This document shows positions 434 through 27,470 of a DNA stretch of 64,000 nucleotides, piece after piece; within the stretch, counting starts at the first letter, position 1, and every line of letters starts with the position of its first letter. Source of the DNA: Cystobasidiomycetes sp. EMM_F5 (Eukaryota); contig JBPGPT010000019.1 of assembly GCA_051047955.1 (NCBI GenBank), forward strand, positions 62,001 to 126,000, read 5' to 3'. A program made the position numbers and the translations under genes. The notes beneath the pieces are model-generated. The model saw only the letters and a program-made list of their open reading frames with translations, was not told the origin of the DNA and ran no database searches.

Positions 434-650
434 TCAGATGCAGCCGCGACTTACGATGTATGCTGCTTGTGTCGGTTGACTGCTCGAAATCATTAGACGT
501 TCGTCCCATGTGATATATCTGGCACGTATGCAATAACATTCAAAGCTTCTGACTTTCTTGAAGGGTAGAGCGGACCCCGTTGACACCGTATTGTCGAAAG
601 CCATCCCACCGTAACGAAGCCTGCGAGTTAAAATGCCACTCATCGTCGTT
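434..650 (-). pseudogene. Inverted fragment of the cyclase-family gene at 3169-4462 (parts of two exons, the intervening intron and the next donor site)
   Basis: Reverse complement matches 3583-3798 with about 8/75 and 6/64 mismatches in the exon parts. Reads NDDEWHFNSQASLRWDGFRQYGVNG versus NDDEWHFNSQASSQWDGFRHYGVNG. No start or remaining exons. Confidence 0.85.
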
Positions 651-708
651 GTTAACGACCTCTCGTCCACATAATCTTACACGACATTGACAATGATTGA
701 CAATGGAG

Positions 709-2697
709 TCAACCGGAATATCTAAAATACCTATTCTGCTTGTCTGTGAGGTCCTGGAGACCGGTCGCCATCAAAATTTCCGCAGTAGGTACGTCTTCTG
801 CCAAAGTCGTAAGCTTATCGCGTCGGCGGTTTTCTGCAGCAGTCACGAAGTAGAAGGTAAGATATGTCGCTAGAAGTACCACTTGACATATGAGGACCGT
901 GAGAATGCCAGTTTGGTATCGAGGAGCCTCCCGGGAGAGGAAAGCTTGTGGTAAGCAGATATTGGAAACGCAATCTGGTTGCCAAAACATAAGCAGACAG
1001 TCTGCTCGCTATGGATCTCACTCACAACCCAAGAATACCATGGATATGACAGTCTGCCTCTTCGTAGCCCCTGTTATGTTTTGCCCAATCAAGCCGAGAA
1101 TTTGTCCATCTAAGTAAAGTGTCAATGATTTAAACGTCGCTGGATGTTGAAGCCATCAAGGAACGCTTACAGCCACTTCCAACGGCGTTCAATAGCGTAA
1201 TAAATACTGTCAGAAGCACTCTGTTCTCGTTGACGCCAGTTGGGGTAGTGTACAATACCGCGCCGGATGCCACAACGACACAGGTAACGCCAGCTAACAG
1301 CCACTGCGATGCGACGATGTAAGCCGGATGTAAGCCGGAAATGCTCTTTGCATATTTACCGTCTTTCTGTTTCTCCAGAACCGAGTTCTACTGGCCAAAG
1401 ACCCTATTGTAATGACTGTGATAGTCGCAACTGCCCAGGCGGGAATTTGTAGCAGCAAAGCCTTCAACTGTGTATATCCGAAGCCCTTGATGACAAGACC
1501 AGAGAAGTTGCTGAACAAAGACACTCCTGTCTGTTGCGTCATCATCATAAGAACAATCCTGCAGCGGAACTCGTTCAGAAAGGTTGGCAACTATCAGGTA
1601 TACGTTAACTCACATCCAAGCCTTAGGATCGGTAATGGCTTCCCAGACCTGCTCTTTTTTGAAGTGGGTCTCTTTTGTCCCTACCTGTGACTTCGCAATG
1701 CGTGCGACGGCGATTGCGCGTTGCCGCTCATTGAGCCACCACGTCTGACCTGGCCTGTCCGGTAGGTATATGAAGAGGAATCCCCCAATGACGACAGTAC
1801 ACGCTCCCAGAAGCACGAAAATATAGCGCCAATTTTGGAGAGCCGGATTCGCAATCGTGCCGAATCCGTAGTAGATGAGCAGGAACGGGATAGGCAAAAT
1901 GGTGTTCGCCAAAGTCCAGAGAGCAAACCTCAAAGGTTGCTCTTTTTGTGTGTAAAACCTTGCAGTGGTCGTCGTAAAAGCCGGAGCCATAGGGGATTCA
2001 AGCAAGCCCAGGAGGAAACGGCAAGCCGCCAGGCCGCCAAAATTCGTAACGCCCTACGTATGGAACGTGTTTGTCAGCCGAAAGGTGCGTTGTGTCGGCA
2101 ATGTGCCGTAGATCGCGTACAATCATCCCGAACATAGTTGCAGACCAAAGAACAAAAGCTACACCGGTGAAACGACCCACGTGATATCTTTGCAGGATCA
2201 AATTCGACGGGTCTAAGGAGTACTTAGAGGAGAAGTCGTGTCCCAAGTATTTGCGATTATGACCCACATGTGCCAAGAAGCAGACCAAAATACTGTCTTT
2301 TAACGTCAGGTATACTTCGATGTTGTAGAGCAGCATTCGCATGACCTTACGTATATTGTGACGGCCCATGAGTAGTCGCTTCCGACCAGATTCAGGTCTT
2401 TGTTCAATGTTAGGGTAGCGGCCGCACCAAGGCCTGATTTGTCTACAAGCTGAAAGCCACTACCGAGTGCCATAAGAGGCAGCAGGATCAAGTCCATTCT
2501 CCGGACGACTCTCCGCTCTTCTTCCGCTGTATAATGCAAATCTTGTCTGCGAGGATTTGAAGTCAGCGACCGCATTGCTATTGCACCGTTGCAGAACATA
2601 GATTTTACCCTTGCAGGGCTTGAGCATCTGCTGCATGCACATCGGCAAGAGGCGTTGGATCAACGGAAGTATGGTCGTCGCCCTTCCGTTCCGCCAT
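709..2697 (-). CDS. MFS transporter, allantoate permease (Dal5)-like anion:cation symporter; multi-exon
   Basis: YTAEEERRVVRRMDLILLPLM..QLVDKSGLG; FYTQKEQPLRFALW; WRYIFVLLGACT..YLPDRP..WWLNERQR; C-terminal AENRRRD..DLTDKQNRYFRY. Confidence 0.9.
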
Positions 2698-3168
2698 GCT
2701 GTAGGAAACGCCGTCCTTGAGTGAATCTGCCATTCCGTCTTGCGTTCGTGACGTTGTTAGAACTCGAGGAGGATCAGCAGGTAGAAGGATGTGAGCACCA
2801 CTGCAATGTCAGAGGAGGTAACGCATATGGCTTTTGTGAGCTGCATTGCAGTCCGGCTTTCATTCCGGGCGGTCAGGCACCTTCTACATATTATATACGC
2901 GCATATTGGTTGATGCTCACCGGTACCGGCAGCCGGAGGCTCGGACCATATGCCGTCCGCCAATGCTCGGAGCCTACTGCTGACGGAGTTGCCTATGTGC
3001 AAGTTTGTTGCGCGCATATCAGCAGGGATCCGGATTGACAGCTCGCACAGGCTTTCGCATTACCGTACAAGACTTTAAGTTGTCGAGCCACCTGCACCTG
3101 CTATGCTATCTTGCGCGCAGCTCTTGCAATATCTTACTTAGTCTGCTCATCGGGGAACAGTTGGCACG

Positions 3169-4462
3169 ATGCTGACAGTACCACAATACTATGATCTCAC
3201 TACCGACAAGCGGGGACCACCGGTACGGCCCTAGACAGAAGATTCAGCAGATCAGTGAGGACTAATCGCTGACTGCGCGCTGGCTTTGCGTGACCAGGGC
3301 AATGCTTGGGGCGTTTTCGGGCAACAAGACGATTTGGGTACCCTAGTACGGCCGTGCTGCGCTCGCACAGGAAGGAGACGGCTTCTGACAGTCTGCGCTG
3401 CACGCAAACCCTGACGATGACAGAATCACATCGACGACCAAGTCGTCAAGCATGCTGCGAGAAGCGAGATCCAAACGGGCCACCGAATCTCTTTAAGCCT
3501 TCCGATGGACTTTTTGCATCGCTGTGCGCCTGGACGAACTCCCTTCTCGAAGGTCACCATTTCCCGGGCCCCGAGAACCGTCAACGATGACGAGTGGCAT
3601 TTCAATTCGCAGGCATCGTCACAGTGGGATGGCTTTCGACACTACGGTGTCAACGGGGTGCGCTCATCCTTCAGGGAAACCAGAACCTTAGACGTTGATG
3701 CATTCGTGACCAGATGTATTACATGGGACGAACGTCCGATGATTTCGAGCAGTCGACCGACACAAGCAGTATACATCGTAAGTCGCTGCTGCATCTAATT
3801 CCTCCCCTTTGCTAAACGAGTAGTGCTCATGCAGATTTCAAGAACAGACTAGTCGGCCGCGGCGTCCTCGTAGACTGGTACTCGTGGTCACGACAGAACG
3901 GCAGCATAACACAGTTTCACGTACCGAACAACCCTAGTCATGTCTACAGTATCTCGGTTTCAGACATGATTGCAGTCCTCGATTGGCAGGGCACTGTCGT
4001 CAAGAATGGCGATATCCTCATTTTGAGGACGGGATGGTTAACACAGTATCGAGCGATGACTCTTGAAGCGCTTGACGAATACCACAAGCGCAAAGACCGA
4101 CAATGCACGATTGGGGCCGAGTTCAGCGAGGACTTGATGCGATGGCTCTGGGCGAGTCGGATTGCTTGCGTGGCATCCGACAACAAAAGCTTTGAAGCTT
4201 GGACGCCGGATGAACCTGGCATGCGGTTTCATGGTATGCTCATCCTGACGGTGCCAAGAACGTCGCATTGATGTTGAATGTTGATTTTACGCTAGAACGC
4301 GCGCTCGCAGGCTGGGGCATGCCCATTGGCGAGCTGTTTGACCTGGACGATTTGTCACAGCATTGCCGCAAGATCGCTCGGTATACCTTTTTCTTTTGCA
4401 GCATTGTCGTGGATGTTCGAGGGGCCGTCGCAAGTCCAGCTAATACCATAGCCATCTTCTAG
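3169..4462 (+). CDS. Cyclase-family (PF04199; kynurenine formamidase/isatin hydrolase-like) metal-dependent hydrolase, copy 1
   Basis: Spliced: GPP/GNAWGVFGQQDDLGTL; NDDEWHFNSQASSQWDGFRHY; LVGRGVLVDW; GDILILRTGW; VASDNKSFEAW; LAGWGMPIGELFDL; GAVASPANTIAIF*. Confidence 0.9.
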
Positions 4463-4889
4463 TAGTCAAGAGAGCATGCCCTCCTCGGCGCCGGATAAAA
4501 TGCATGTTCTTGCCAGGCGTGGACAAAGTTAGGCCAGAGGTGCGCTGCCTGCAAGTATGACTGGCAGTCCGTAAGTTGATGCTTTTGGCAAATGGGGCCA
4601 AAGCCGTCACCAGAAGTGTTAACAGTAAGCGCTTGAGTTCGTTCTGCAAGCCTCATGTGTGTTCTGCTACAGTCTCGTTTAACGAGATTTGCGAGATTGC
4701 GTCAAATCTTAGGGATACTAACGAAGACCACGGCCTGTAATCATAGTGACTAATGTTACGTTATGACTCTTGAGCTTCATCACCAGCACCAATGATAGAG
4801 TCTGAGCCAAATCGCAGTTCGGGAGCCGGTGTTAATGCTATTGCACGTAGATTGCAGCGACGCGCACCGTACAGAGCACTAATACAGCG

Positions 4890-6403
4890 TCATACCACGC
4901 GACTCGATGGCTGCCCACCCTCGACCATTTCCATCATGTAATCACACATCACTTTGCAGGTGTGGTCTCTGATCTCTTCGGGTGCTGCTCCAATGTGAGG
5001 CGATGCAACCAGCCTATCAGACGCTAGACGCCGCCCGTAATGCTCAATCGTCGGTGGCTCGACCTCCCAGGCGTCGATCCCCGCGCCTGCGATGGTACCG
5101 ACCTCGAGTGCCTCCAGGAGACTGAGAAGGCGAATGCAAGACCGCCATTAGCAATGAGATCTATCAGGCACTCTAGATAACCATCACGTACTCGTTCTCG
5201 TCGATAATTCCGCCGCGAGCAGTGTTGATGACGATCGCGGTTGGCCGCATGCTGCGAAATTCTTTCGCTGAAATGAGGCCCCGCGTACTGTCAAGCAGTG
5301 GAACATGCACGGATATGATGTCGCAAGCGGGGAGCATTTCCTCCAAAGAAAGCACGCGGGTATGGCGAATCGCCTTCCAAGGCTCCAGCGGAAGGTATGG
5401 ATCATACCTATACGGTGCCAGTACAGCGCGTCAACCGTAGCGCAGGTATTCCGAGCAGAGTAAGCAATGCTTACACCAGGATGTTACACGCAAAAGCACC
5501 TTGCATCATCTTTGCGTACATTTGACCAATGTTGCCTCCGCCAATGAGGCCCAACTGACAAAGTTACGGAAGTCAGTCAGCTTGCGCGCGCGGTCCGTCT
5601 GTCCAAGGATGGCTCACCGTCTTCCCTGTAAGTAAGACGCCCCTCTGACCGATGGCTTTCTGCACCGTGTCACCTGCCTTGATGCGTCTGTCGATCAATG
5701 ATAGCTGACGAGCGACAGTACAGGTCAAAGACATGGCAACTTCGGCTACGGCGACCGCCTAGATGGGCAGGCAATGTTCGTCAGGCCAAAGAGCACATTT
5801 AAGCTGGTTCTCTTCTACTCACGTTGACGCCTGGGCAATTCGTGACTATTATACCGCGTTCCTTTGCAGCCTCGACCGCTATTTTGTCATATCCAACGCC
5901 ATGCCGGGAGATGAACTTGAGCTTGGGACACTGAGCAATGTCTTGGGCGGTTACGCTGCTGGAGCCAACAAGAAGACCCTCCTGTGATCAGACACAAGCC
6001 TCCGTCAGCTACGCAGCCGTGTAGGACAGGCGACGAGAAGGCTCACCGCGTCTGTCCTCCAATTCTCCCAACCTGGATCGCCCGGTCCAACGAGCTCGAA
6101 CAACGAGCGTGCGTACGCCATGCCAGCTGGGGTAAACTTATCCAGCGCAAAGATCCGTGGCTTGTCACTTGTCGACGTAGCAATCACACCATGCGGGGCA
6201 GGGCGAATCCTCGGTCAGCTCGAACGAACGAACGGGCGGACGCGGGGCACGTATGCCCCAAGGATGAATCTGTCTCACGTATTACCAATGCTGCTCGTCG
6301 TTGCAGGCTTGCTGTTGCGTTTGGCGAAGTTGGCCACATGTCCATGACCATTTGCTCCATGTCCGTTCGGCGCACTCTGGACCGGCTTGTCGACACAAAT
6401 CAT
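4890..6403 (-). CDS. D-isomer-specific 2-hydroxyacid dehydrogenase (phosphoglycerate dehydrogenase/glyoxylate reductase-like)
   Basis: VGLIGGGNIG Rossmann motif; CDIISVHVPLLDSTRGLI; VINTARGGIIDE; AGIDAWEVEPP; ASPHIGA. Start inferred at acaaccATG (6403), followed by an intron. Confidence 0.9.
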
Positions 6404-7365
6404 GGTTGTTGCTCAAGGTGAAAACTTTGCTACGCGAATGATTGCTTGCTATGCTTCAAAGAGGTGGTTACGGTTACCAGCTTCCGTACAGATCAGCGAG
6501 CCCAACGACGACAGCGAAGTAGGAAAAGGTCAGGAGTGTTCGGGAACAGGCCTCTGCGTTGCCGGACTCCGGATCTTGCTGTCAGTAGACTGCATCACCC
6601 GCATGTTCACTGACGGAGGTCAACTGCGCGTCTCAAGCGGGTTGCCACCCGAACTGCCCAGGCATCCGGTCCTGGTCGAGGCGGGCAAACGGGTGCTGCG
6701 GCCACAGCACGGCATCATCGACTGCCTGACGCGCAGTAGTGAGGCCGTCGAAGTGGACAGGGACATCGGACGTCGTGAGCGTTGCCGCCGTTTTTTCTGC
6801 GGGGGGTCAATCCGATGAACGATGTGCGGAGATCAAGGCTTGCTAGCCTGCCCATCAGCGCTGTTACCTGCAGCCGTCCAAGCATGAACCCAATTCGAGC
6901 CAAACTACACTCGAAACAAAAGTCTCGACCTTGACTTTGTCTTTGCTAACAACGCTGAGCGCCTTGGGGCTGTCAGTCCCATCAAGCTAATCGCGCTATG
7001 CCGTTGTCCTCAGGGCTGGACTTGCGTGCAATCATGACAGCAAATCTCCCGCAATGCCAGTGCGGCATGGTACACTTGAACATCCCTTCAGCTGTGCCTT
7101 ACTTTCTCCCACTACACATAGCATGACTGACGGATGACGCTGTCTATCGGTCCAGCTGAAAGCTTTGTGTTGATCTAGAATTGCGGACCGTGATGAACTT
7201 TCTCAAGCGTATACCAGCCAGATACATCCTGAACGAGCCAACGGTGCCCGGTACCCGTGCACGGAGGTGTTGTGTGCGAAAGATGAACAAGACGGCACGA
7301 ATTGCGCAGACGCTGTTGACATACGCGGCCGGACTCGTCGAATGGTGTCGCAGAGACAAATTGTA

Positions 7366-8982
7366 CTACAGCACAGCGAGAGCATTCGCAGTGCTAGCGA
7401 CCCCTTTCGGAATGTTGAGCGGTGCAGCGGAAAACGCAAAGCTATACTTGCGGTGCTTGTGGCACTCCTCTGCCAGGTGTTCGAGGTCAAGCAACTCCAT
7501 TATGGGACAGCCCCAGCCAGCCAGTAGCACTTCGTGCAGACTTGTTCCTGCACGCTGCTTGGGTGGCCATGCCTCAAAAGCATTGGTGTCCCCGCCCACA
7601 ACCGAGAAGGACCGTTCCCAGAGCCAGCGAAGCGTTTTATCGCTTCCTTCGAGTCCTATGAAAGACCGGACTGTTCTCTGGCCCAAGGCCTGTTGCTCTT
7701 CCTCGCTCAATTGCTTATACTGCTTCGTAAAGCCGAAGCGGACCAGCAGTATATCGCCCACCTCGAACTGAATGCCTGGTCAGAATGAAGCACATGGGGT
7801 AGTTGAGACAGTGTAGATGGCGAGGCGGGATGAACAGCATTCAGTCGGTGCCCAGGCGTCCGCTCGGCTACCCACACGGCGACACGGGCTGCGCGATGCA
7901 CATCATCATTCACCTTGAGCAGATACCACCGCTTCGAGCTCGTCTACCGTGACACTCTGCGTCGAAAAGGCGTGTATGCTGATCCCCTGCCGCTCTGCCC
8001 AGCGAGCGTAGTCCAGAAGTACGCCGCGCCCAAAGATGCCTTTCCGTGCTTGATCTACGCGGAAAATGGTCATGATTTGCTAGCGAGCCAGCTGGCCGAC
8101 GTCATGAAGCCTTCAACACTACTCACTGGTAATGTCTAGTGCAAAGCCAGCGTCAGGTCCGGTAAAGTCCTTCTGTGTCTTGCCCATGTAGTACCTAAGA
8201 TGGCAAGACAGTAAGCCCACCGAGACCTGCTGTTGGAGAGATCGCGATAGTACTTACTGCAGCGTATCCTGGTACGGATAATGCCGCAGACCATCCATTT
8301 GGCTGGACGATTGCGTGTTTATGCTCACCTGCACGAAGACATGCACGGATCGTGCGAGCACACCGCAGACAATGTCAGTCAAGCCTCGCTACGTCCCTGA
8401 CGCCGAAATTGCGAACCTCGTCGTCGTTACAGTGACTGAACAGAATTGTGAAGACGGGTGCCGCACTCAATCGGATTAGCGTCATGCACGAGCGGGCTTC
8501 ACGTTGATACCACATACCCTCGATTCAGGATCTCATGCCCAAACTTGCGTCTAGCCGGGTTTAGTGGAGTAGGAGTATTCAAAGGCAGGCTAAAAGCAAC
8601 AACAATGCCGTAAGCCAAATTCGGGCTGCTCCGTTGATTGACGCAGAGGTAGTCGTAAGGCAGCGATTGCGTCAGAGGAGGAATGGCACACGGGGAACAC
8701 GTAGGCCTCGTCAACATGTCCCGTTCGTCGCAGAACGTTCACGCCGCGGTGTAGGGAACGTCGCGACTTCCATATATATATCGCGGAGCGGAACTCCACC
8801 CTAGCTTACTTGAGCGGACAGACTATGCCGTATTTGACCACTTGCGCCGCTGCTTTTGCCGTACTTTCGTTGAGCAAGTTCAGAGTCCCGAGCTCATCGT
8901 CGTCTCCCCACACGCCCCAGGCCGACCTGCGCGGATCTCCGCTTCGATATGGCAAATCATCGAAGTTGACAGGGCCCATCAT
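7366..8982 (-). CDS. Cyclase-family (PF04199) metal-dependent hydrolase, copy 2
   Basis: SAWGVWGDDDELGTLNLL; INTQSSSQMDGLRHY; GDILLVRFGF; VGGDTNAFEAWP; LHEVLLAGWGCPIMELLDL; GVASTANALAVL*. Confidence 0.9.
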
Positions 8983-9480
8983 GATAACTCGCGGACTACA
9001 GACCGGCAATCGTTGACGGATGTAAGTCTACGATGATTTGCACGAATTGAGTCTTCATTAATCGTTACGTAACTGCACAATGTGGGCGGCCGTGACATAC
9101 CGGGTCAGACAGACTCAAAATCGTCGCAGGATCACGTCCTTGGCGGGCGGACTGACGAATCGCTCTTCATACACACAGGGCCGACCTGAGAGATTGCTGC
9201 CGCAGGTCAACTCCCACGACACTGACGAGATCCGGCTGAGCCCATCGAGCCATGCCGTTTTACCTCACGGCATGTTGCTCCGGGCTCGTCGATTTTCCAT
9301 CCCGGCTTACTCTCCTGCCTAGAAGACCGGGGCGAATGCAGATGCACGCGAGTAGAGGCGCCCCGCTGCTACGGTTTCCTTTCTTTCCACACAATAGAAC
9401 AGAACAAAAGAACCGACCGTTCTTACCCTTTCAACCATTGCCCCGCATCCCTCTTCGCTCAAAATCAGCTGGCTACGACA

Positions 9481-11828
9481 ATGGCAAACACCCATGGCGA
9501 CATCGAAAAGTCGTCCATTGGAGAGAGCAAGGACGTTTACATTCACAACTACAAGGACGAAAATTCGCACCCAGAGCATGTTACTCAAGTCGAAGCTCGC
9601 CTCTCGGAATACGCCAAGCATATGTGTGTAGCTTCTGCGTCCTCTGACTGCACACCAGTTTCGCTAACGAGCCTCTACACTGCCCTTTACACTCGTCAGC
9701 GATGACATCGAGTTTACGGAAGAAGAGTCGAGACGTGTTGGACGCAAGATGGACATCAATCTGATGGCCTTGCTGCTTGGTCTTCAGATCAGCTTCTACG
9801 TAAGCCTAGATGAACCGTCGGTCCGTGCGGGTGTGCTTTCAGCTTTCTGACGCTTCGTCATCAGTTGGACAAGTCCAACATTGGCAATGCCAATACCGCC
9901 GGAATGAGCGTAGCGCTTGGACTCACTAGTGCTCAGTATACTGCACTCCTCACAATCTTCTACTGCGTGTACCTCTGCTTCCAATGGGTATGTGTCTGAG
10001 TTCGCCTCCACGACCAGTCGCTCATCTGGACCTCATTCGTGATATGCAGCAAGTCGTTCTCTTCAAGGTGTTTCCTGTTCATATCTGGGTTGCTTTCGCT
10101 GCCGTAGGCTGGGGAACTGCTTCCGTTGCACAAGTACGCGCTATTGATAGTCTTGGCGATCCGCACCTTTCTGAGCCATTCCCCACTTTTCACAGGCAGG
10201 CTGCCACAACTTCGCAGAGATCGTTGTGTGCCGAGTCCTTTTGGCCATTTTTGAAGCTGGTAGGTGACTTCGTCAATGCTCGCACGCCATCGAGTGTGGC
10301 CGGCTGAACTGTGGCTCGCTCGCTGCAGCTGTTGGGCCGGGTATTTCCTTGTACATTTCCATGATGTGGACTCGTGGAGAATACGGCTTCCGGTCAGCTA
10401 CATTACTGGAGTGTCGCACTTGAGGTACGGGGCTGAGAGACTTACGCAGATGGGCATTGTATCAGTGTGCCGCAGCACTCGGAAATTGCTTCGCTGGTGA
10501 GTGTCGTAGCACTTTGTGCTCCGAGAGATGCGAACTCAGTGCGAACGATTTTACGGCTACAGGTGCGCTTGCATATGGCTTGGTGCAGGCCAAGACCTCC
10601 CTTGCCCCGTGGAGACTAGTTTTTCGTGAGGAATGTCTTCGCAGGCGAAGATACTGGGAACTGATGAAAAATGCGCGTAACGACAGTGGTTGAGGGTCTT
10701 CCCACTCTCATCTTGGTACCTTTCCTGTTCTTCTGGCTGCCGGATGCTCCAGACAAATGCAGATGGTTCACAGAGCGTGAGAACCAAATCGCCAGAGCTA
10801 GGATTGAACGGAAAAGCGGCGATGCAAATGAGAAGCTCACCTTTGCGGGTTTGATTGAGTCTGCTCGGGATCCGTGGACGTGGTTTGCTGGTGAGTGATA
10901 CGAGATGGAGGCAGTCGCCGGAGTATGCACTGACTGTTGAGCGGGCAGGCGTCCTGCACTTTTTGGGCTCAACATCTTTCAATTCCATTGCCGTCTTCTG
11001 CAGCCAAATTGTGAAGGATATGGGATTCACCAGCATTAATGCGCAAGGTCTGCAAGCCCCGCCTTTCTTTATCGCTTTCGTTGTCGGCGTCGTAAGATAC
11101 AGCGTAATTATGGGCAACGAGACGCAGACTGACGTTGCTCCTGGCAGACGGCGGCGTACTTCAGTGATCGCGCGGGCAAAAGAGGGCCGTTTATCATTGT
11201 CGCTTCGATCTGTGGAGGTATCGGATACACTATATTGGTCGCGGTCCGCTCGTCGCAAGGAGCCAAGTACTTCGGAGTAATCCTCCTGGCATCTGGCGTA
11301 TATACTTCACAGCCCTTGATGTACGCGTGGTGCAGTAACAATGTCGCCACCAAGTCGAAGCGTGCTTTCGTGAGTAATGCTCGCGGCTTGAAGCAGGGAA
11401 GAGTAGCTGAGAATGCGGGCCCCCGTAGACAATGGCAATATTCTCGATAACTGGCCAATGCGGGTCAGTCCTTGGTACGAATGTTTACCCGAGTGCAGAC
11501 GGACCACTCTACATCAAGGGCAACTCTGTATGCGCTGGCGCATGCTACCTCACGGTCGTCATGACAATCGTCGGGATGCTGTATCTGCACAACAAGAACA
11601 AAAAGAAGGATGCGCTATACGGCAAGGTCAGCGCCTTCGATCTGTATGAACAATAACGAGGCCACGTCGCTGACAGAGCCGCTTTTCCCTCAGCCTGACC
11701 CCAATGCCGTTGTGGACGTCTCTATCCACGGAGAATCTAGTCCGCAATGGCGCTGTGAGTCGATTTCGCGTTGCCAACGTGGTCGTTTGCCAATCGAACT
11801 GACGCAATGCTGTCCAGTCATGCTGTAA
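9481..11828 (+). CDS. MFS transporter, Tna1/Dal5-like anion:cation symporter; multi-exon
   Basis: FTEEESRRVGRKMDINL; LDKSNIGNANTAGM..LGL..QY..LLTIFY; WLPDAPDKCRWFTERENQIA; AQGLQAPPF; GSVLGTNVYPSADGPLYIKG. Confidence 0.9.
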
Positions 11829-12510
11829 CTGCCTTGTCAGGCGTTGCCGTCGCAGTCAGTCAGTGCTGGTAAAGAATAAGTGCTACCAGTCTCAATTTCC
11901 AAACGCCAAGCAGCAACATATAAATCAGTCTTTAGCAGGGGAGGTTTGTCTGCGAAAGGCGAAAGGGAAACAGGTGCTATGTGTTTTTACGTCATTCGTT
12001 GTCTGGTCGAGCTGAGATGTGTATGTCAATGGTAATTTCGTGCGTCAACGTGGGCAAATGTGGTGCCTCAGCTTCGGAGACTACAGCCATCCCTAGACCT
12101 GTACGTTGTAAGTAAGCTGCGTACCACGTAATGCTGGCCGCAGCGGTAGCAACTGGGTGTCGTCCCATGCATTGGCTGATGCGGCCCGCCCCAGGTCCAG
12201 CTCTTGCAATTTGACTGCGACAAGGCGTGTCTATTAGGGTTGTCGCATATCGAAGACGGATTCTGGAGGGTGCCAGCATTGCGAACAACACAAAGTGACC
12301 TCTGCAGCCTCGACGAGGACCGCACTGTGTCCTTGAAAGCACTACCGCTATCGAAGATGTTATTCGGATCCGCCAGGCGCCCCCTGGGCTGCCTCCAGAA
12401 AATTTGAAGGTCGGACTACAATCTCCACAACGTCTTTGCAGTCGTCTGGCATGGCAGTTCTCCCGGTGGTGCTCTGTCGCCGTAGCTGATTGGCCAGAGC
12501 TGCAGCTAAC

Positions 12511-12603
12511 CCGGCATCCGCTGACCACGGTATAGTCCGGCATCCTTTCCTGCGGAGAGTGATGCCGGCGTCGGCAGATACCGTCTTGCTAGCCGCCATA
12601 TAA
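12511..12603 (+). promoter_or_regulatory. Candidate Zn2Cys6 binding array (three CCGGCATC) plus TATA-like box upstream of the aldolase
   Basis: CCGGCATC at 12511 and 12537, its reverse complement GATGCCGG at 12561, TATAA at 12599, ATG at 12716. Confidence 0.45.
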
Positions 12604-12715
12604 CAAGAATGTTTGGACAAACAACATTACCTCCATCCCGAGTTCTCGACAGCCGATCCCCCGAATTCTACATCGCGACAGCCAGCCCCTGTAGTCCAGC
12701 AGCAGACTTGAAAAC

Positions 12716-14008
12716 ATGTCACCGTCAATGGTTCCGACACCGCTGCGAGACCGGCTGGAAGCTGGTCAGCTAGCTATCTCACTTTCTGTCAGGCTCGTGT
12801 CGTCGGTGGAGATTGCGCAGATAGCGGCCACTGCTGGATGGCATGCAATACTTATGGATCTCGAGCACGGCGCGTGAGCATTCAATATCAAGCTAGGATG
12901 TCCGACTGTACCGGATACGTGCGGCTGACATTGCTGCACTATGACTACCCTGCTACTGAACTATTGGCCCGCGTGTTTAGGTTCTCTCTATATGAAGCCG
13001 GGCAACTTTGCGTAGCGGCGAATGCTGCTGGGGTCAGTCCTATTATCCGCGTACCAGAGAACACGTCTGGCTGGATCTCTCGCTCCTTCGACGCGGGTGC
13101 TCAAGCGGTCATCGTCCCACACATTGAAGTAGGTCGCAGCCAAAGCAGGACTCCCTTGTCTTTGAGCATGCTCTTCCAAGGCTCACTTGTCCGTACCATC
13201 ATCCTTTCGCAGACGGCCGAAGCAGCAGCACGTGTTGTTCGATACTCTCGCTTTCATCCGCGAGTACGTCCCGGCATCTTTACATGCGCACCAATACTTG
13301 CAACTGACGGGTTACCGGTTCGGTCTTCTTCAACCGTTAGGGCGAGCGCTCAGCTACCTACAGTCACCCGCTCCTCAAATTCAGTCCGGTGGCCGGCAAA
13401 ACGGCGACGGCGTTGGTCGACTCCAAGATCCTCGTGTTCTGCATGATAGAAAGCCGGCAAGGTGTCTCAAATGTCGAGTATGTCAATTGCGGGCCTTTGC
13501 CTTGCTACAGTAGGTAGTCGAGCTGATCGACTCTTGAATTGCGCTACGCTTAGAGCTATTGCTGCTGTCGAAGGAGTCGACGTCCTTCTCATCGGGTGTT
13601 CGGACCTGACTTTGGTGAGCGATGATTGTTTTTCGAAATTGGGGAGGGCTGACATTGCATTGATTGATACAGGATATGGACATACATCAGCAATGGGATC
13701 ATCCGGAACTCGATTCAGCCATCAAGCGTATATGCGACGCTGCCAAGAAGCACGGAAAGCACATCGGCCTGGGAGCACTTGGAGCACGCCCTGATCTCTT
13801 GGAGAAGTTTGGCGGCTACGGCGCACGGTGAGCCCTTTGTGAATCAATTGCTCTTATGTTCTACTGACGTCAGAGTGGACTCCGCGCGGTGTCAAATCTT
13901 AGCTTCATCATGGGCGCTGCCGACATGGGCTTGATTCTTTCTGGAGCAGCAAAGGCTGCGTCAAGCTTGGAGGAACTGAACTCGAGAATTACCGTCGTTG
14001 GGGTCTAA
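12716..14008 (+). CDS. HpcH/HpaI family class II pyruvate aldolase
   Basis: EIAQIAATAGWHAILMDLEHG; PIIRVP..ISRSFDAGAQAVIVPHIE; SRFHP..GER; FCMIES; IAAVEGVDVLLIGCSDLT. Confidence 0.9.
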
Positions 14009-14329
14009 ATGTGTTATTGTGAAATGTAGTACTAGACTTTTTGGGGGCTCCACCCGGTCAGAGTATGGCAGATGTGAAAGCGACCGTACCATGCACGCGC
14101 ACGATGTCAATGTGATCAGCGGCATGTGAGCAAACAGTCCATTTGGGCGCGTTCAGTCGTTTATCGGATCTTCCTCTTCTTGTTCAAAGGTCTGTGATGT
14201 TTACGATGCTGTGCAAATCGTGGCGGAAGGGATGCCGGCGGTCCCCATTGTCTCCACTTACGTGCAACCCGAGTCTTGTTTTCCTGGAAGCACGGACAAA
14301 TCTGTACATCTGCAGCGAAAGCGCTGACA

Positions 14330-17300
14330 ATGGAGGCGGAAGAGGGCAACGTACTGGGTACCGTGGGCGTCCGCCAGGCAGGCTCAACAGATGGCGGGGG
14401 CGGCAGGCGATATGCATTCGCGTGCAGCGGATGCAAGCGCCGTAAAGCACGTTGCGATGGGCAGCGGCCAGTGTGCACGAGGCGAGTTGGGCGCGAGGGC
14501 CACAATTGCAAAACGTAGCCGTCGCCGCAGACCACGACAAGATCTGAGACCTTTTGGGCTTTCCAGATGCGCTCGCCTAAAGGAGGAATGCTCATATGCG
14601 CCGTAAGCTATACCTTCTACTGTCCTCTTCCCGCTACAAACATGGTGAATGCAATCTGCCTGACTTCTGTGTCTACTATACACACCTGGCTTCTCGGAAC
14701 AGACTACCAGGCAAACAAGATAGCGTCGAGTGGTTGCGGGAGAAGCTTGAAGAAGCTCGCGCAACTATACGCAGTATGGCCGAGGCTGCCCAGAACGCGC
14801 CATCATCAGGAGCTGTAACCGGCACAGAAACGCCAATGTTCATCAGGTCGTCTGCAGGAACTCCCGATAATTCGCAGTCCATCGGCAATCGTCACAGCAG
14901 CGATGACCCTACAGAAAGTGTAGCTGAGTTGGTTCATCACAGTGAGCAAGCAGCCGCCCTTGTTCGAGTGCCGCGGAGAGTTGATTGTCATACAGTGAGT
15001 CTCGACGACGCTGGATCGTTACAGCATTACGGCACCAGTTCTCTGCTGTATCAGAAGCCATCGGAGACCATGGTCTCTGCCAAGTTGCTCATGCAAGCAA
15101 GGCAGACACCCGAAAGCGGGGAAACTTCGTCCGCACTGGCCAATCAGCCGGACTGGCAGAGTCTCGCTTACAGTACCTTGATGCTGCAAGAGCAACATAG
15201 CAATGCCGAGCGCCAGTGGCAGCTAGTGCAGACATACTTCACCTGGCTGAATCCGGTGAGGAGCGCATCGCTGAAGACATGTATCGTCTTAGACAGTCTG
15301 CTGAATGCGACTGCCATAGGAATTCAATATCGTGGTTCGCGCGGTGTTCTTCCGAGATATGGCTTTGTCTGGGCCATATTACAACCGGTTTCTGTTATGT
15401 TGTATCTGTGCACATGCGGCTAGATTCTCAGACGTCAACATGGATCTGGGCGGTATCCCTTCAGGCAAGGCTACCCCACCGATGTTCTGTGGCACCCAAG
15501 ATCTAGCCGAAGCCAAACAATTACTCATGATTGAGATGGAAAAGCCGACTTCGGTACCGACCATTCAAGGTCTGATGATCTTGGGATTGAGAGAGGCTGA
15601 ATGCGGAGGAACATCTCTTGCCTGGCTGTATATCGGAATGTAGGCCAATAGTCCGCTTTGTCATCCATTCCGCTATGCGTAGCTCGCTAGGCTCCTCTAA
15701 TATTTATACCGTAGGGCCTGGCGCATGCTGCGAGACCTCGGCCTCCACCTCGCCTCGAAAGCTCTAGGTTTGTGTCGATCTTTCTGTTACTTTACATGCC
15801 TTTTCTTATTTTGGCTTCAGCTGTCTATGGCGGCGTCGGCTTACCAGCGATGGACCAAGAAATACGACTACGTCTGTTTTGGTCGGCTTACTCAATCGAC
15901 AAATGCATTTCAATGGCATTAGGGCGATCACCCACATTCAACACCTGTGCGTGCATTGGGTAGCTCTTATGATTGGTCCGTGCTTACAGATTCTGCAGAT
16001 CAGCGACAAAGACCGAACATGATGAGTGAGCATCGCCTACTTTCGCAATAGAATGGCTTTACTTGACGCATTTCCAAGCCGATACAACGGAAGATGGCGA
16101 ATTATGGTCTCCTCTATCGATTGATGGGTCATCCCTACATTTCTTCGCAGCTTACCCAGGCTCGCCTGCATACAGTGCCAGCAATGCCCGTTATATGGCA
16201 ACATTGTGTATGGTAGGTGTAGAGTTCTTCATTTACACAAGACTGACGTGCGGTCCAGGTTGTATCAGATGTGATGCTGAAATTCTACATGCGCCGGCCG
16301 GATCTCAATCGTTCATTAGGTGAGCGAGTATCTTGTTGCGTTGGTAGTGGTTCGCTCAAGCTTGCGCAAAGACTTCTTACGCGATTCACAATTGAGATTA
16401 ACGTCTTGGTTCCGAGATTGGCCGCAAGCCATACGCTTTCCAGCTTCTGTCCATGTCGATTGCCCGCCTCCGCATATACTCTCTCTGAAGTAAGCCCAGC
16501 ATCTGATCGCAAGCTGTCATCTATCTCGTTTAACATTTCAAATTTATCGTACCGCAGTCTGCTTTACCGCGCTGCGACTATCTTGCTGCATCGACCATAT
16601 CTAGAGAACGATGAAAATGTTAGCTTGTCCGATCAGACCCGTGCGGCAATGCCACAGTCAATACGAATTGCAACCACCATGGCAGAAGAGATAGATATGC
16701 TCTTTGAATTGCATCGCCAATCGTGAGTTGCAACGAGCATTCTGCGAGCTTGCACCGCTACTTCTGTATTGACTATCCGTCTCATTACAGCTTCGGCTTG
16801 TGTCATTTGACGTACACAATGCTATATTGCTGTTATGCAGGAGCGAGCGTGAATGTCTTGGATTTTCTGACAGGAAGCAAGTTGGAGTCGAGTGCAGCTG
16901 CCGCGAGGTTAAGCCGAAGTTTACGAGTCTTGGAGAAAGGTGCTGGCCAATGTCCGACCCTCTTAGGAACGATACGAATCTTGAAGAGCAGGTTGCGCGC
17001 CGGCCCTAGCCTGGGCAAACGGGTGAGTGAGAGTCGCCGCGAGTTGACAGGCACGCGAACTGATCATATATGTCATAGGGACGATTGCCGGCTGACGAGT
17101 CGCCAGAGTCCGTTTCCAAGCGACAGCACATAGCAGAACAAAGACAAAGTGGTACAGCAATTCACATCGATTCTACGTCCATGCGGCTGGTCGATGGCGA
17201 CTATGCAGTACCGCAACAGGTCGCACAGGCTACTCCAAGCGAATCATCCGTGAGCTTACAACATCGTCTACCTCACCTCACATAAATTGTAGGCTACTAA

Positions 17301-17479
17301 AGGACATAATTTACCCTTTACAGGATTCCGAATGGGCATCAAATATCATGAGACAGGCTTTCACAGACCCTGCCCTTCAATCACCTTCATTATCTACTGA
17401 GACGCATCTGCATCCCCTGGGCCTGAAGGATCAGTCTTTCCTGCAAGGCGACGTCTTTGGTACGGGTATGATGATGTAG
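14330..17479 (+). CDS. Zn(II)2Cys6 transcription factor with fungal TF middle-homology region
   Basis: Spliced ACSGCKRRKARCDGQRPVCTRCARLKEECSY; later LVQTYFTWLNP, PTIQGLMILG, LRDLGLH, EIRLRLFWSAYSIDKCISMALGRSP. 3' end approximate. Confidence 0.9.
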
Positions 17480-17987: not shown

Positions 17988-19331
17988 TCAAGTGCTATCC
18001 TGCACATACCGCTCACGCATGCGCAAGTTGCAAGCTTTCAGTCGAAAGGATGAGCGAAAATGTGTACAAAGCGGATCATTTTCGCGTATCGCCGTGCTAT
18101 TGAAAAGATCTGATTCGTCTTCCGGCCAGCCGGTAGCAGACTGTGACGTAGGTATTGACGCGTTTATCATTGCAAACAGTCCACCACACCACCATGAATA
18201 GCAACCATCCACGAGCTTATAGGAACGTCCTCGAAACCCGCCAGCTTCGATAGGAGAGCCTTGCATCGACAATGCCCATCGCAATAACAGCGGGACGTTG
18301 ATGGCTCTTCGAGCCTTACTTGACGGTTGTCCTGAGCCATAGTGTCCGTTCGTTTGCCCGTGCGTGGGCGCCAGAATAGTATTCGAGAGGTGTAAGGAAG
18401 GCGACGCTTGCAAAGCGAAATATGATGCGAAAGCGCAGAATGTGTATCCGCCGTGTGCTTCGCCTAGTGGGGCTGGGGACGCATTTGGAGTATAAGCAGG
18501 TGCAGGCTGAGAAGCTGCCGCCATGCCGCCTTCATACGTTTGACAGCTGGCGATGAAATCAGAAGTCCCTTTTGCCAGTTCCGGCGTTAAAATATTCAGA
18601 AGGACAGCAGTAGTTATTGCGCAATAACAGCCTCTACCACGTAGCCAAAGACTCAGTCTGTGTAAACGATTAGATGCATCCTGCGGGACATACCGAACAT
18701 CAACTTCGCCGCCTTTGTGCATGACGAATGATCCGTCCGCTTGTTTCAAAGTCAGCATCCAATTGTGAATAGCCTGTCTGTGTCGTGTATGTTAGGGTAT
18801 CTTAGACTACTGACCATTTGACATCATGCCTGCACACCTGTCTATCCAGTCCCAATCCTCGCTACCATCGCCAAGATAGCATAGTGCTGAGACGGTTGCA
18901 TAAGTTGGTGCCAAATGAGCCATCTGTCCTGGCCCTCCTCCAAATCCACCCTCTGTGGCATGATAGAAGCTCTTGAGCGTCGCGATAGCCTTCTTCCTTG
19001 TCTCCGCATCCAAACGCGTCCCAAGCAGAGCCAACGAATGCGCAACCCAGTAAACGAGCCACGGTCTAGATGCGTCCAGAGAGGTATATGGCGCCGGGAG
19101 GGGACTCAGGATACCTTTCAGCCATCTTATGTGCGCCTTTCGATTTAAGGCGAGCTCGTCTGTCCGCAACGGGACGGAGCTCGCTGGCTTTCCTGGCTGT
19201 GGGATGTACAGAGCCAACAGCTCTCGGATGACAGCCTCAGTCTGCGACTGCTCTTCTGTCGTTTCAGTCTCGACGCCATCTGTCGGCAGCGGTACCAGCG
19301 GAAACAGCAGCGACGACGACGACGAGGCCAT
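17988..19331 (-). pseudogene. RAM1: Farnesyltransferase beta subunit, 3'-truncated copy
   Basis: SLDASRPWLVYW, GGFGGGPGQMAHLAPTYA, GGEVDVRGCY, GEAHGGYTFC, GGFRGRSYKLVDGCYSWW. Homology stops near LFNSTAIRE (about 18080); I found no GGLxDKPxKxxDxYHTCY segment before the opposing TF gene. Confidence 0.7.
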
Positions 19332-19523
19332 GGAATGATGCGGACTGTAGCAGAGATTTGCAATGTAGGACAGAAACGTCCAGCACGGTCAAGGCAGCTC
19401 AAACCGCAATGTCATGCTGGATGCCGGCCAACAAAGCCCGCTGATCGGCTGCAATGACCTTTTGTTCCACGAGAGCCAGTGAAAGCATGCTCAGAAGATC
19501 GCGTTCAAGTTTGCGTTACAGCA
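19269..19523. repeat. Direct repeat, right copy (pairs with 1-248; may extend leftward through the truncated RAM1)
   Basis: Same match as the left copy, offset 19268 nt at the coding end. Confidence 0.95.
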
Positions 19524-19744: not shown

Positions 19745-21186
19745 TCACAGAACCTTCGGTGCTGGCATCGGATCGTGTTCTGCCATAAACGTTTCCGGAT
19801 CTTCGTAGTGTCGGCACTCGAAGGCGACTTGGAAGTTCCTGTATAAATTCCTATAAAGGCGGTCGAACGCAAAGAGCGGATTTCTGTAAACAGCCAGAGT
19901 CTTCAGGAAGGGAAGTCGTTTCTGACCACCCTCGAAGAGGAAGTGCAGGCTGTGCGGATCTGCATAGCGATCGCGTATGATATGGAGTGTCTCTAAGGTT
20001 CGAAGCTGGAGAATATCCTCCGCATTGCCTGCCGGATCGTGGTAGTACAGCTTTCGCAGCGAGTGGCAGGCTCGCAGAATCAGGCTGCTGCATCCTCTCA
20101 GGCTAGGCAACCTTGTCCTTGGCATTGCATCGGACCCCTCAAGGTCACGTCGGAAAGCCGGGCGCTGATGCTGTTCCGCTTCAAGTGAAAGGCAGAGGAT
20201 TTCAATCTGCGGTGCTACAGCTACGACTGTAGAAATAAAGGCATCGCGCTCGAGGCCATATAGCCAGCTCAGACCGAGTTTTCGCAGGGTGCTACAGCAG
20301 ACAACAGTATCAGCCTGGTATCTTGTCGCCCAAGTGCAATCCGCATCACCCCCGTTGACTATTGAGGAGCCATTCAAAGTCTGTACTGGATAACGCACAG
20401 GCGTGCAAATGAAGAGATGTGAGTGCGAAGACTGGAAGAATGGTGGTATCTATGGTCTCAGGGTTGACTATTGCCTGAGATAACCTAAGACGCCGCAAAA
20501 GCGGGGCATTCGCAGCTAGTGCTTGTAAGCTCGCCGTGCGCTGGTAAGCATTGTACGGCCAAGAAGCGAGAAGCTCGGCGACGCATAGAGACGGCATGCC
20601 TGTCAGCATGGGAGCGGCTGCCTTGTCGTTGCCCACCATCGCTAAGGTGATCTGCCGGGCGTTGGCATACTTGCCTTCCGATGCAAATACAAGCTTAGCT
20701 TGTTCGGTAGCACGCAGTACGACTGAGGAGAGCGATCCACGGAGGTTGTATAGTTGATCCATCTTTCTGTATCGCTCGGCGTCCTCAAAGAACGATAGTT
20801 TGACATTTGTATACATCATCCTCAGGGAACTGTGGCGCCATACAGAATTGACGATGGATGCGCTGAACACAACCGGCCAATCAGTCAGCAGGTCAGGCCA
20901 CGTCTCACAGTACAGACGGACTCACGCGTAAAGATCAGCTGTGCTCGCCGGAGAAAGCCGCCATTGGCCTAGGTTGCTTCGCTCATCTTCGCTACCGTTG
21001 CGGTCAAACAGCGGCTGCCATTCGACCAGATGCACGAAGATGTTGTGCAGCAGCTCTGGCGTTTGCCATCGCATACCATAGTCGTCGGAACGATGGGTGT
21101 CTGTCGAAGCATTCTGACATTGAATACCTTGAGCGTGGATAGTCACAAGAGGATGGTAGTAAACTCACATGGCTTTCGTCGTCCAT
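19745..21186 (-). CDS. F-box-like protein with leucine-rich region, tandem copy 1
   Basis: WQTPELLHNIFVHLVEW..DLYA/ASIVNSVWR..MMYTNVKL resembles an F-box motif; LTSLHLHAC; LRKLGLSWL; PETFMAEHDPMP. Confidence 0.75.
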
Positions 21187-22072
21187 TCTCTCCTGCTCAC
21201 TTGCTCGTCCAACAATGTAGCGTCTTTTGCGCTGCTGGATGTCAGTTTCAGTCACTTCAGCTGGACCAATGCTGAGCGCGCGACTTCAATGGTGGCAGAT
21301 CATGCGGTGCTAGCACTGCGAGAGAGCCAACGTCGAGTGAGTTCAGGACTGTTCATGCTGGGTTGCGAAGGATATCGTTGACGCCGGCTTCCGCTGTTCA
21401 ACAGGTGCGACTCGTCTTCTCATGCCAACATTCATGACATTTGTGACCAGAGCTGGCGTTCATTCCACGCATCCATCGTTGATATTCATTCACAGCGACT
21501 GGCTGACTCGTCCTTGTGTTGGAAGCAAGCATGGCTGCCCGACTACTGATTTACTGATCCCTGACCTTGGACGATCTCGCTATCTCCACATTTCATGACT
21601 GAAGCATGGCCGCACCCGTCATCTGATGTTGACGCCGTCCATCTGCATCGCAGACGACAACTGCCTTGTTCATTGCATTGTTGCTGTGATGTCCAACTGT
21701 TGCGATCTAAATGATTGGTACTCGCACCTTGCCGTTTTGAATGCAGTAGAGCTCAGCATCTGTAAACGCGGTCTAATGTTACGGGTTGACTGTGACTGTG
21801 TCCACAGGACGGCAGACCCTCAAGGCGGCGTAATTTACACGAAAGTGTCGCCGCCAGCCAGGAAAACTACGTACCCACAGTGTGAAATCCGCTCAATCGT
21901 GGAGCTTCGTTACAGCGTGAACTTTATTACAGCACAGCTCGCATACTTCACACCTTACTTTCGTGCCGAATCAGTATCGTTTTGCATGCATTCTGTAACA
22001 ACACGCCGTCCGGCAGCAATGATCTATACTCCGACATATTCCAGCTTCAAAATTCGGCATAGCAGCTCACAA

Positions 22073-22107
22073 CCCTGTACTGTACCCTGTACTGTACCCT
22101 GTACTGT
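22073..22107. repeat. Minisatellite, about 3 x CCCTGTACTGTA
   Basis: ccctgtactgta ccctgtactgta ccctgtactgt read directly. Confidence 0.9.
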
Positions 22108-22337
22108 TTACATATTCAAATCGAGCTCGAATACCCCCTTTGCAGTACCTCATGGCCTTCTCAACCTAGACCTGTATCAACCAGCAGCAGGGCGACATAT
22201 TTGCGATAGCTCATTTCTTCATTGTTGATTCGACGCCTGCCCGTCTTCACTTTAAGCTCTGCTGAGTGCATCAGAGTGGCCGTATGAACAACCATCGCTG
22301 ACGCTGCGCCAGATGTATCGATCCTGACGAACTGTAC

Positions 22338-26560: not shown

Positions 26561-27470
26561 TGAAACCATCTCAACAAACGATACCGCATCTCTCCACGGG
26601 CATACTGAAGCGGATGTGAACAGAATACATGCTGCTCTTGCTCGTTGCGGTCGCTGAGTCCTCAGGTCGGCTTCAATCACTGACTGATGGGGTCTGACTC
26701 TGGCAACGGGTGTCAAACACTCATACGGACTTGTGGGATGCCTTCGTACTGCTCATATCTCGTCACTGTCGACTACCGCAGAGATGGAACTGCTGATTGG
26801 GGAGTTTTTAGTGTCAACCGCCTGCCAAATGGCTAGCGATAAGCTTCGATGCTACTACAACAGTAATTCATTGTCATTCTGATTCGAATGAAGACGTTAT
26901 GTCGTCGCCGAACTCGTTCTAATAGATTACGTATTGCCGTTGAGCGAATGGAGTGGAATGAAGCCCATCCTTTGATGAATCTGGATTGCTCCGCCATACC
27001 TGGCAACTTTCGCGCTCTATGGCACTCTCATTCTGTCCACATCTACAGCTGACTGATTACGTCACGCTAGGGCCTTCACACGACTTGCTTGTACCACTCA
27101 ACTCTAGGAAGTCTATCCTTTCCCAGGTGATTGCGCGTTTCATGCCAAAGCTTATACGCTGCTATCTCCACTAGAAGGGGGTTTTGCAGACCGCCTGAAC
27201 CAATTATACCAGCGTCACTTGTATATCGATCGTACGGATTGAGTCTGCGAAGCTCATGCGCCTGAAAGATCTGTTCTGCCATCGACGCCTCGCTGAATCC
27301 GTTGGCCTCGCCATTGACCAAAATGTCGTATTGGCCGGGCTTATCGTCGGGAAAGATGTGCGGACCGGCAGCCGCCGCTCTCTGTCGAGACGCACATGAG
27401 CGCCCTCACGAGTGCCATCTACAAGGATAGACTCTGCGGGTTGCTCTGAGGCGCGATATGAAGCCTCGCT

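Follow-up and report, generated by a model that had tools for sequence, protein, structure and literature searches.

Among the characterized enzymes of the PF04199 (cyclase) family, a glutamine (Gln) motif occurs, according to the consulted sections of PMC5341072, in the metal-dependent esterase MGS0169 (PDB 5IBZ) and in the trans-dienelactone hydrolase of Pseudomonas reinekei MT1. In the same sections, MGS0169 hydrolyzes p-nitrophenyl acetate with a kcat/KM about 1000-fold over that for isatin and requires Arg87, His286, and Glu299. Here we analyze a 64,000-nucleotide stretch of the genome of Cystobasidiomycetes sp. EMM_F5 (contig JBPGPT010000019.1, positions 62,001 to 126,000, that is, G000:C101:62001-126000; hereinafter, the window), in which seven genes, for two hydrolases of this type, two major facilitator superfamily (MFS) transporters, a dehydrogenase, an aldolase, and a transcription factor, occupy positions 709-17479. 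This cluster looks like an undescribed variant among fungal catabolic clusters; its core is partly conserved elsewhere, and its integration footprint is unusual. The host genome comprises 18.3 Mb in 253 contigs.

The cluster hydrolases have in common with the two bacterial enzymes the motif, the counterparts of the substrate-site residues Arg87, His286, and Glu299, and the best fold match. Unlike these enzymes, they are eukaryotic, ~30% identical to the bacterial ones, and present in two divergent copies, one of which (CYC2) has Met for the usual motif Trp; furthermore, the cluster lacks a dioxygenase, cycloisomerase, or maleylacetate reductase like those in one of the bacterial contexts described below. 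The non-phosphorylating sugar-acid routes (Dahms type; GarL, YfaU, HpaI), as presented in the consulted part of PMC12994016, resemble the route that we propose below in lactone opening, a 4-hydroxy-2-oxo acid, retro-aldol cleavage to pyruvate, and a carboxylate MFS. These standard routes use a dehydratase, whereas the cluster encodes neither a dehydratase nor a sugar dehydrogenase; the oxo acid would be produced by a 2-hydroxyacid dehydrogenase, and the lactonase would be a PF04199 enzyme. With respect to the integration footprint, the nearest precedent that we found is the Cryptococcus 'Identity Island' (PMC3861523), where introgression between closely related basidiomycete yeasts transferred a block of several genes and left duplicated sequence behind; in that case, both donor and recipient are sequenced, whereas here a single metabolic unit is bracketed by a duplicate of one essential gene. 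Starship elements (excerpts of PMC10104507 and PMC11623301) similarly bring large cargo into a fungal chromosome, but the block contains no recombinase gene, and its flanks are 1.43-kb gene duplicates rather than short target repeats.

Composition of the seven-gene block

The gene models were built with scripts, the splicing being guided by hand; all introns are GT-AG except for one GC-AG intron. The models are the following:

709-2697, minus strand: MFS1, transporter, 507 amino acids (aa), 8 introns (MFS_1, E 1e-11, Pfam, single exon)
3169-4462, plus strand: CYC1, PF04199 metallohydrolase, 321 aa, 5 introns (Cyclase, E 5e-11)
4890-6403, minus strand: DH, D-2-hydroxyacid dehydrogenase, 371 aa, 6 introns (2-Hacid_dh_C)
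7366-8982, minus strand: CYC2, second PF04199 hydrolase, 317 aa, 6 introns (Cyclase, Pfam)
9481-11828, plus strand: MFS2, second carboxylate-type MFS, 508 aa, 13 introns (MFS_1, Pfam)
12716-14008, plus strand: ALD, HpcH/HpaI-type pyruvate aldolase, 271 aa, 6 introns (HpcH_HpaI)
14330-17479, plus strand: TF, Zn2Cys6 transcription factor, 767 aa, 13 introns (Zn_clus, Fungal_trans)

All seven genes are intact, with 57 introns in total and every frame open, at the positions, in the orientations, and over the span given in the original prediction, which was made from the sequence alone. The GC-AG intron, at 14482 in the TF model, completes the six-Cys motif. Pfam families were assigned on single exons, several of which score below the curated cut-off because they are short; one MFS1 exon has its best match, under the cut-off, with the D-galactonate transporter subfamily model. 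We take MFS1 to be a carboxylate transporter of the anion:cation symporter type (Dal5-like) and MFS2 to be Tna1-like. The two divergent MFS/cyclase pairs, described previously as about 0.5 kb apart, are separated by 471 and 498 nt. As predicted, no housekeeping gene, oxygenase, polyketide synthase (PKS), or non-ribosomal peptide synthetase (NRPS) was seen inside the block, nor any extra gene. Enzymes, carriers, and a regulator are adjacent with no unrelated gene interposed, as in a fungal metabolic gene cluster.

The linkage of the seven genes exceeds what is expected by chance when judged against the other PF04199 and HpcH genes of the same genome. The three such PF04199 genes and two such HpcH genes have no match to any other cluster protein within ~10 kb; one of the five is adjoined by an unrelated MFS. 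Among 128 open reading frames (ORFs) picked by length from these regions, there are housekeeping genes, amidases, a flavin adenine dinucleotide (FAD) oxidase, a 3-hydroxyacyl-CoA dehydrogenase domain, and the unrelated MFS just mentioned.

Two public protein records are identical to cluster proteins over the searched exons, namely, P0173 to DH, with five internal junctions in agreement and different ends, and P0293 to ALD. The models behind these records (window 4764-6130 and 12728-14008) differ from ours in the start, last exon, or intron choice; the P0293 model lacks a conserved helix and so is probably mis-spliced. Two of the CYC2 introns are long (138 nt at 7776-7913 and 220 nt at 8590-8809) compared to 46-107 nt in the other six genes. 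In window positions 1-30000, there were no matches to Rfam RNAs.

The hydrolases, the dehydrogenase, and the aldolase

Both hydrolases contain the motif Gln-x3-Gln-x-Asp-x3-His (residues 97-107 of CYC1 and 94-104 of CYC2; the CYC2 gene includes a 19-nt micro-exon at 8417-8435). The original prediction modeled them on KynB and isatin hydrolase, with which they share the fold and the Asp, His, and Glu ligands, but in CYC1 and CYC2 alike, the first two His of the KynB/isatin hydrolase motif are replaced by Gln. Given the Gln motif in place of the His motif, ester or lactone hydrolysis is a better guess than a KynB/isatin-type reaction, and by prediction CYC1 and CYC2 are members of the Gln-motif ester/lactone hydrolases. 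For a fungal relative that shares 46% identity with CYC2, the sole PDB sequence match at E<=1 is 5IBZ (E 1e-27); at full length, it has no sequence match to KynB or isatin hydrolase at that threshold. Fold comparison was performed with an AlphaFold model (pLDDT, a predicted local confidence score, of 91) of the relative P0008, rather than of CYC1 or CYC2, and yielded 5IBZ as the best match (E 4e-30), followed by isatin hydrolases (2e-12) and KynB (3e-10).

CYC2 has 1476 relatives at E<=0.001, the best of them 70% identical. A homologue search with one CYC1 exon retained none of 165 candidates because the threshold, E<=1e-10, was too strict. Six plasmid regions around bacterial relatives of the hydrolases were analyzed, with lactone-related neighbors in four and not in the other two: a gluconolactonase family protein with a flavoprotein in one region, a carboxymuconolactone decarboxylase family protein in another, muconolactone isomerase in a third, and a set of dioxygenase, enolase-family, and maleylacetate reductase genes in the fourth. 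None of the six contains an HpcH gene beside the hydrolase relative. A search of the host genome for AtuA produced no match, but the control was silent as well, so that absence is not implied. In the literature searched, we found no natural substrate for fungal Gln-motif PF04199 hydrolases.

The cyclase/MFS modules, considered to be twins in the original prediction, are not: identity is 36% between CYC1 and CYC2 and 24% between MFS1 and MFS2, and phylogenetic analysis points to separate ancestry of the two hydrolases. CYC2 belongs to a clade (support 99/99) with Aspergillus, Rhodosporidiobolus, and environmental proteins, including those of three metagenome loci discussed below (L037-L039), whereas CYC1 groups with a Periconia protein (99/97). 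A single clade of CYC1 and CYC2 was rejected (p-value of the approximately unbiased test, p-AU, 0.029) on 26 of the ~150 hits, picked by similarity to CYC2, for a group named after inspection of the first tree. Another cyclase of the host genome (L011:55-3134, G000:C221) falls within the CYC2 clade and is followed by an FAD-linked oxidase. Yet another (L012:3436-5500, G000:C239) lies right behind a 3-hydroxyacyl-CoA dehydrogenase-like ORF, a pair that is also present on a Roseomonas plasmid with muconolactone isomerase.

DH resembles phosphoglycerate dehydrogenase (PGDH), with both Pfam domains, the NAD-binding loop, and the Arg/Glu/His triad, and without the regulatory domain; it does not reach the SerA phosphoglycerate dehydrogenase equivalog (228 bits against a cut-off of 454). 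It is 44-46% identical to Sordariomycete proteins and 38-43% identical to Kwoniella proteins, and its matches elsewhere in the host genome are 33-45% identical. A single-sequence fold of DH, with a pLDDT of 33, was not used. In the Fusarium record P0280, a close DH relative is fused to a fungal transcription-factor domain, which hints at adjacency of dehydrogenase and regulator in that fungus; this domain has no match to the cluster TF at E<=1e-4.

At E<=0.001, ALD matches 21 PDB sequences, with 3e-16 for the best of them; HpcH, GarL, and YfaU structures are included. It has His, Arg, Glu, and Asp motifs at residues 48-51, 75-78, 154-157, and 179-183, which we take to be the catalytic ones of HpcH/HpaI aldolases. 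Evaluated as the annotated model P0293, ALD scores 46-68 bits against the GarL, HpaI, and RhmA equivalog cut-offs of 369-441. Its best plasmid matches come from a Rhizobium region with genes for tartrate dehydrogenase, L-threonate dehydrogenase, and 3-oxo-tetronate kinase. An aldolase exon that encodes the identical protein (P0294) occurs with other intron flanks in other assemblies, so that a relative of this yeast apparently carries the ALD gene.

A predicted lactone-scavenging route and partial recurrence of the gene set in other fungi

Taken together, the seven proteins could form a scavenging route in which a 2-hydroxy-lactone is imported, opened, oxidized, and cleaved to pyruvate, a prediction that we consider to be evenly balanced between holding and failing. 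MFS1 and MFS2 would import a small aliphatic 2-hydroxy-lactone or ester, or the corresponding open acid. The Gln-motif hydrolases would open the ring, yielding a 2,4-dihydroxy acid from a gamma-lactone that bears a 2-hydroxyl and is unsubstituted at C3. DH would then oxidize C2; the resulting 4-hydroxy-2-oxo acid is of the type on which HpcH aldolases act, and ALD would cleave it to an aldehyde and pyruvate. Induction of the whole set would be due to the Zn2Cys6 factor. Candidate substrates are of the alpha-hydroxy-gamma-butyrolactone or 3-deoxy-aldonolactone types, and the two hydrolase/transporter pairs may feed two related substrates into a single redox-aldolase tail. Such a route needs neither an oxygenase nor a dehydratase, which would explain the absence of both from the block. 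The earlier view of a self-contained block for uptake, hydrolysis, redox, and aldol cleavage, with its own regulator and a presumably non-aromatic substrate, is supported, and part of the linkage recurs in other fungi. The combination was previously not recognized as a described fungal pathway, and we likewise found no fungal gene cluster combining HpcH and a cyclase in the literature searched, which lay outside subscription journals and supplements, whose cluster tables might include this gene set; judging by their titles, papers that mention trans-dienelactone hydrolase do not deal with such a fungal cluster either.

For the analysis of linkage, we used the best 80 of 500 confirmed metagenome loci with fungal-type cyclases; 31 of the 80 reach 8 kb. 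A scan of metagenomes that started from the six sequences closest to CYC2 had yielded 163 pattern matches, none of which was confirmed. A match to the cluster regulator was detected in three of the 80 (L037-L039), the same three whose cyclases are closest to CYC2. The cluster TF is 31-32% identical to the regulators of L039 and L038 over 440-484 residues (E 1e-56 and 1e-59, respectively), compared to a best E of 8e-19 for three paralogues in the host genome and 2e-8 for a control regulator beside the cyclase of another locus, L053. An MFS is also present in two of the three loci, L038 and L039, the third locus ending first. The L039 transporter is 31-34% identical to MFS2, as against 24-25% for two host paralogues; the host genome contains 35 matches to the MFS family, which makes orthology of the L039 transporter and MFS2 less certain. 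Judging from these comparisons, a CYC2-TF-MFS2 core recurs in distant fungal contigs. In L053, the cyclase gene and an MFS gene are divergently oriented; this MFS shares 34% identity with MFS1, and the cyclase branches near CYC1, with weak support (84/93). Co-localized homologues were thus seen for the trio in L037-L039 and, more weakly, for the MFS1-cyclase pair in L053; DH and ALD were linked in none of the 80 metagenome loci.

The three loci represent an undescribed fungal module of MFS, Zn2Cys6 factor, cyclase, and citramalate lyase (CmlAB), in which related cyclase, regulator, and MFS genes are adjacent, as in the cluster; unlike the cluster, the module has another gene order, a citramalate-lyase homologue in place of DH and ALD, and no second cyclase/MFS pair. 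The gene after the cyclase (L039:10475-12349) is a single-gene fusion of citramalate-lyase subunits A and B (PDB 9ERQ/9EVF, E 1e-65 and 1e-20), and a homologue of this enzyme also begins at the end of L038. This layout, a hydrolase followed by a homologue of citramalate lyase, which likewise releases pyruvate, parallels the proposed hydrolysis and pyruvate-releasing cut. Genes of the cupin and fumarylacetoacetase families lie downstream of the fusion in L039.

Candidate sites of the cluster regulator were sought in the intergenic regions:

2698-3168, 6404-7365, 8983-9480, 11829-12715, and 14009-14329: five intergenic regions with candidate regulator sites

Among the 131 CGG triplets in these regions, 11 are part of CGGCAT (352 patterns scanned); as a sign of a single regulon, this shared hexamer is suggestive only. 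Spaced CGG pairs were discarded as a shared site because the two patterns present in all four promoters were equaled in number in 19 of 500 shuffles; shared 8-10-mers show no excess over shuffles. In L038 and L039, two identical CGG-N7-CCG boxes, located 5' of the cyclase and MFS genes, are candidate sites of the regulator encoded there.

Several observations weigh against a conserved, co-regulated lactone pathway. Dal5-type transporters also carry ureido and peptide substrates. ALD and DH score far below all equivalog cut-offs, so that their substrates are not fixed, and both reactions are reversible. The CGGCAT signal is modest, its best P being equaled in 25 of 1000 random region sets, and the promoter motif is borderline in outside loci (6 of 61, P 0.053). 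L038 and L039 are near-identical, so that the recurrent trio stands for two independent lineages. ALD has no match in any of the 80 metagenome or 80 prokaryote loci, DH matches none of the former and four of the latter, and the complete set of seven genes was seen nowhere else among them.

Two alternatives to the lactone route can be envisaged, both of which we consider unlikely. The block could serve in nitrogen scavenging, with a cyclic amide, an imide, or an N-acyl compound as the substrate of the hydrolases and the released hydroxy acid passing through DH and ALD. Such activity would be in line with the fold common to isatin hydrolase and KynB and with the label of MFS1 as Dal5-like, which is our assumption, but both cluster hydrolases lack the His motif, and no amidase, aminotransferase, or deaminase is encoded inside the block. 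In the sections of PMC5341072 cited above, MGS0169 retains weak isatin activity, but of the two characterized Gln-motif enzymes named there, one is an esterase and the other hydrolyzes a lactone. Alternatively, the block might not encode one pathway at all, with two or three unrelated modules gathered at a rearrangement-prone spot. The separate ancestries of CYC1 and CYC2, the occurrence of single modules in L037-L039 and in L053, and other local duplications in the surroundings are compatible with such a patchwork; conversely, the block has one regulator for all genes, CGG[CT]AT is present in all five intergenic regions, all seven frames are intact, and the chemistry chains without a gap.

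RAM1 repeats at the borders of the block

The strongest clue to the arrival of the block is one missed in the original prediction: the farnesyltransferase-beta gene RAM1 is repeated in direct orientation on the two sides of the 17.8-kb block (1440 alignment columns, 1.43 kb, 94% identical). The features of the borders are as follows:

1-248 plus 1182 nt before the window (G000:C101:60818-62248), minus strand: repeat A, intact RAM1-A, ATG at 63, 516 aa, full ORF; promoter and 5' end of the gene within 1-248
18086-19523, minus strand: repeat B, RAM1 promoter and codons 1-375 (RAM1-B), ATG at 19331, 3'-truncated
436-651, minus strand: inverted relic of CYC1, 216 bp, parts of exons 3-4 with introns, 187 of 217 positions identical to 3582-3796

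These are the only two copies of RAM1 in the genome. RAM1-A has the Cryptococcus farnesyltransferase beta subunit as its best PDB match (E 2e-58). RAM1-B lacks the C-terminal 140 residues, including a His that is presumably a zinc ligand, and the conserved Asn331 is changed. The CYC1 relic, located 188 nt inside the left junction, differs from CYC1 by 8 silent and 6 replacement codon changes and has lost the Gln and His of the motif.

Across 375 codons, RAM1-A and RAM1-B differ by 36 silent and 17 replacement changes, with a synonymous divergence (dS) of 0.14 and a ratio of nonsynonymous to synonymous divergence (dN/dS) of 0.145. For a copy that was dead from birth, a dN/dS of ~0.5 is expected; the observed value is significantly lower (P 3e-5; P 4e-6 without the variable loop), which indicates that RAM1-B was functional through most of its history. 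Four late changes in RAM1-B at residues shared with Cryptococcus imply some decay since. Replacement changes crowd the last 105 codons (13 of 17, window 18086-18480). A crossover chimera was considered for RAM1-B (dN/dS of 0.045 in the 5' part and 0.45 in the 3' part; the split was reached in 3 of 2000 permutations with all codons) and was not adopted because the split fades without the variable loop and the last six codons (203 of 2000).

We propose that the block entered beside RAM1 by recombination between homologous RAM1 sequences, which would leave a pair of direct repeats, with one RAM1 copy intact and the other truncated; the block itself would be a mosaic of two old modules, CYC2-TF-MFS2 and MFS1-CYC1, with DH and ALD added. 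A gain of the block through RAM1 from a lineage ~14% diverged at silent sites appears somewhat more probable than the competing origins together. The GC content at third codon positions of the cluster (0.53-0.62, compared to 0.49-0.63 in host genes) is host-like, as expected for a near donor. No recombinase or transposase family was detected among 50 ORFs scanned, and there are no terminal inverted repeats at the borders, so neither a Starship nor another autonomous mobile element is apparent. Two points tell against this origin: two RAM1 introns (18633-18693 and 18777-18837) differ at 3 of 120 sites, fewer than a dS of 0.14 predicts, and the contig data considered below are equally compatible with a circle or with a sample of two haplotypes.

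Among the alternatives, a local duplication comes next, as a possibility that we rate clearly lower. RAM1 could have been duplicated in place, with both copies long functional, the cluster later landing between them and cutting RAM1-B; in a variant covered by the same rating, the cluster had adjoined RAM1 all along, and decay of the duplicate came late. Local duplication would also yield a low dN/dS, the region holds several local duplications, and its composition is host-like. Set against this, two events would be needed as well as long retention of a redundant copy of a single-copy subunit, and the repeat ends coincide with the block borders, within ~190 nt of the ATG on one side and in mid-exon on the other. 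Local duplication in the region is exemplified by four tandem F-box/LRR-like genes to the right of RAM1-B (19745-28600, minus strand; segments 31-60% identical), an apparent local family expansion. Furthermore, ~6.5-11.9 kb before the window (L006:8100-10000 and L005:1-3500), tandem genes encode Cys-rich proteins that are small, look secreted, and contain internal repeats and a Lys-Arg site; over 1.4 kb, two of the copies share 77% identity.

An extrachromosomal circle, or a second haplotype with a RAM1 fragment, put in tandem by the assembler, is very unlikely: a circle predicts an identical 18,183-bp unitig, but the longest identical tract between the RAM1 copies is 109 nt, short enough for common reads to phase, and there is no second copy of window positions 1-21000 elsewhere in the assembly. 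The predicted k=31 unitig between the repeats is indeed 18,183 bp, the length of a public contig that encodes the window protein P0295 and presumably is an independent assembly of reads with both junctions; this agreement makes an assembly mis-join unlikely. A distant or bacterial origin was rejected on the basis of the 57 introns, the host-like third-position composition, and nearest named relatives that are fungal, at 42-46% identity.

If the block did enter through RAM1, it could insert, be excised in circular form, or spread to haplotypes that lack the cluster, always with one intact RAM1 remaining, and the RAM1 pair would be a datable footprint of a metabolic cluster entering or leaving a basidiomycete-yeast chromosome without a mobile element. 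The chemistry of DH and ALD beside two Gln-motif hydrolases leaves a short list of possible substrates that can be tested, and the distant module that ends in a citramalate-lyase homologue provides a second handle on the function of such hydrolases. Tentatively, and with all parts required to hold at once, which we find rather doubtful, the cluster would represent a dehydratase-free 2-hydroxy-lactone pathway and the first natural role for the widespread fungal Gln-motif PF04199 enzymes, moving without a transposase between related basidiomycete yeasts via a RAM1 handle.

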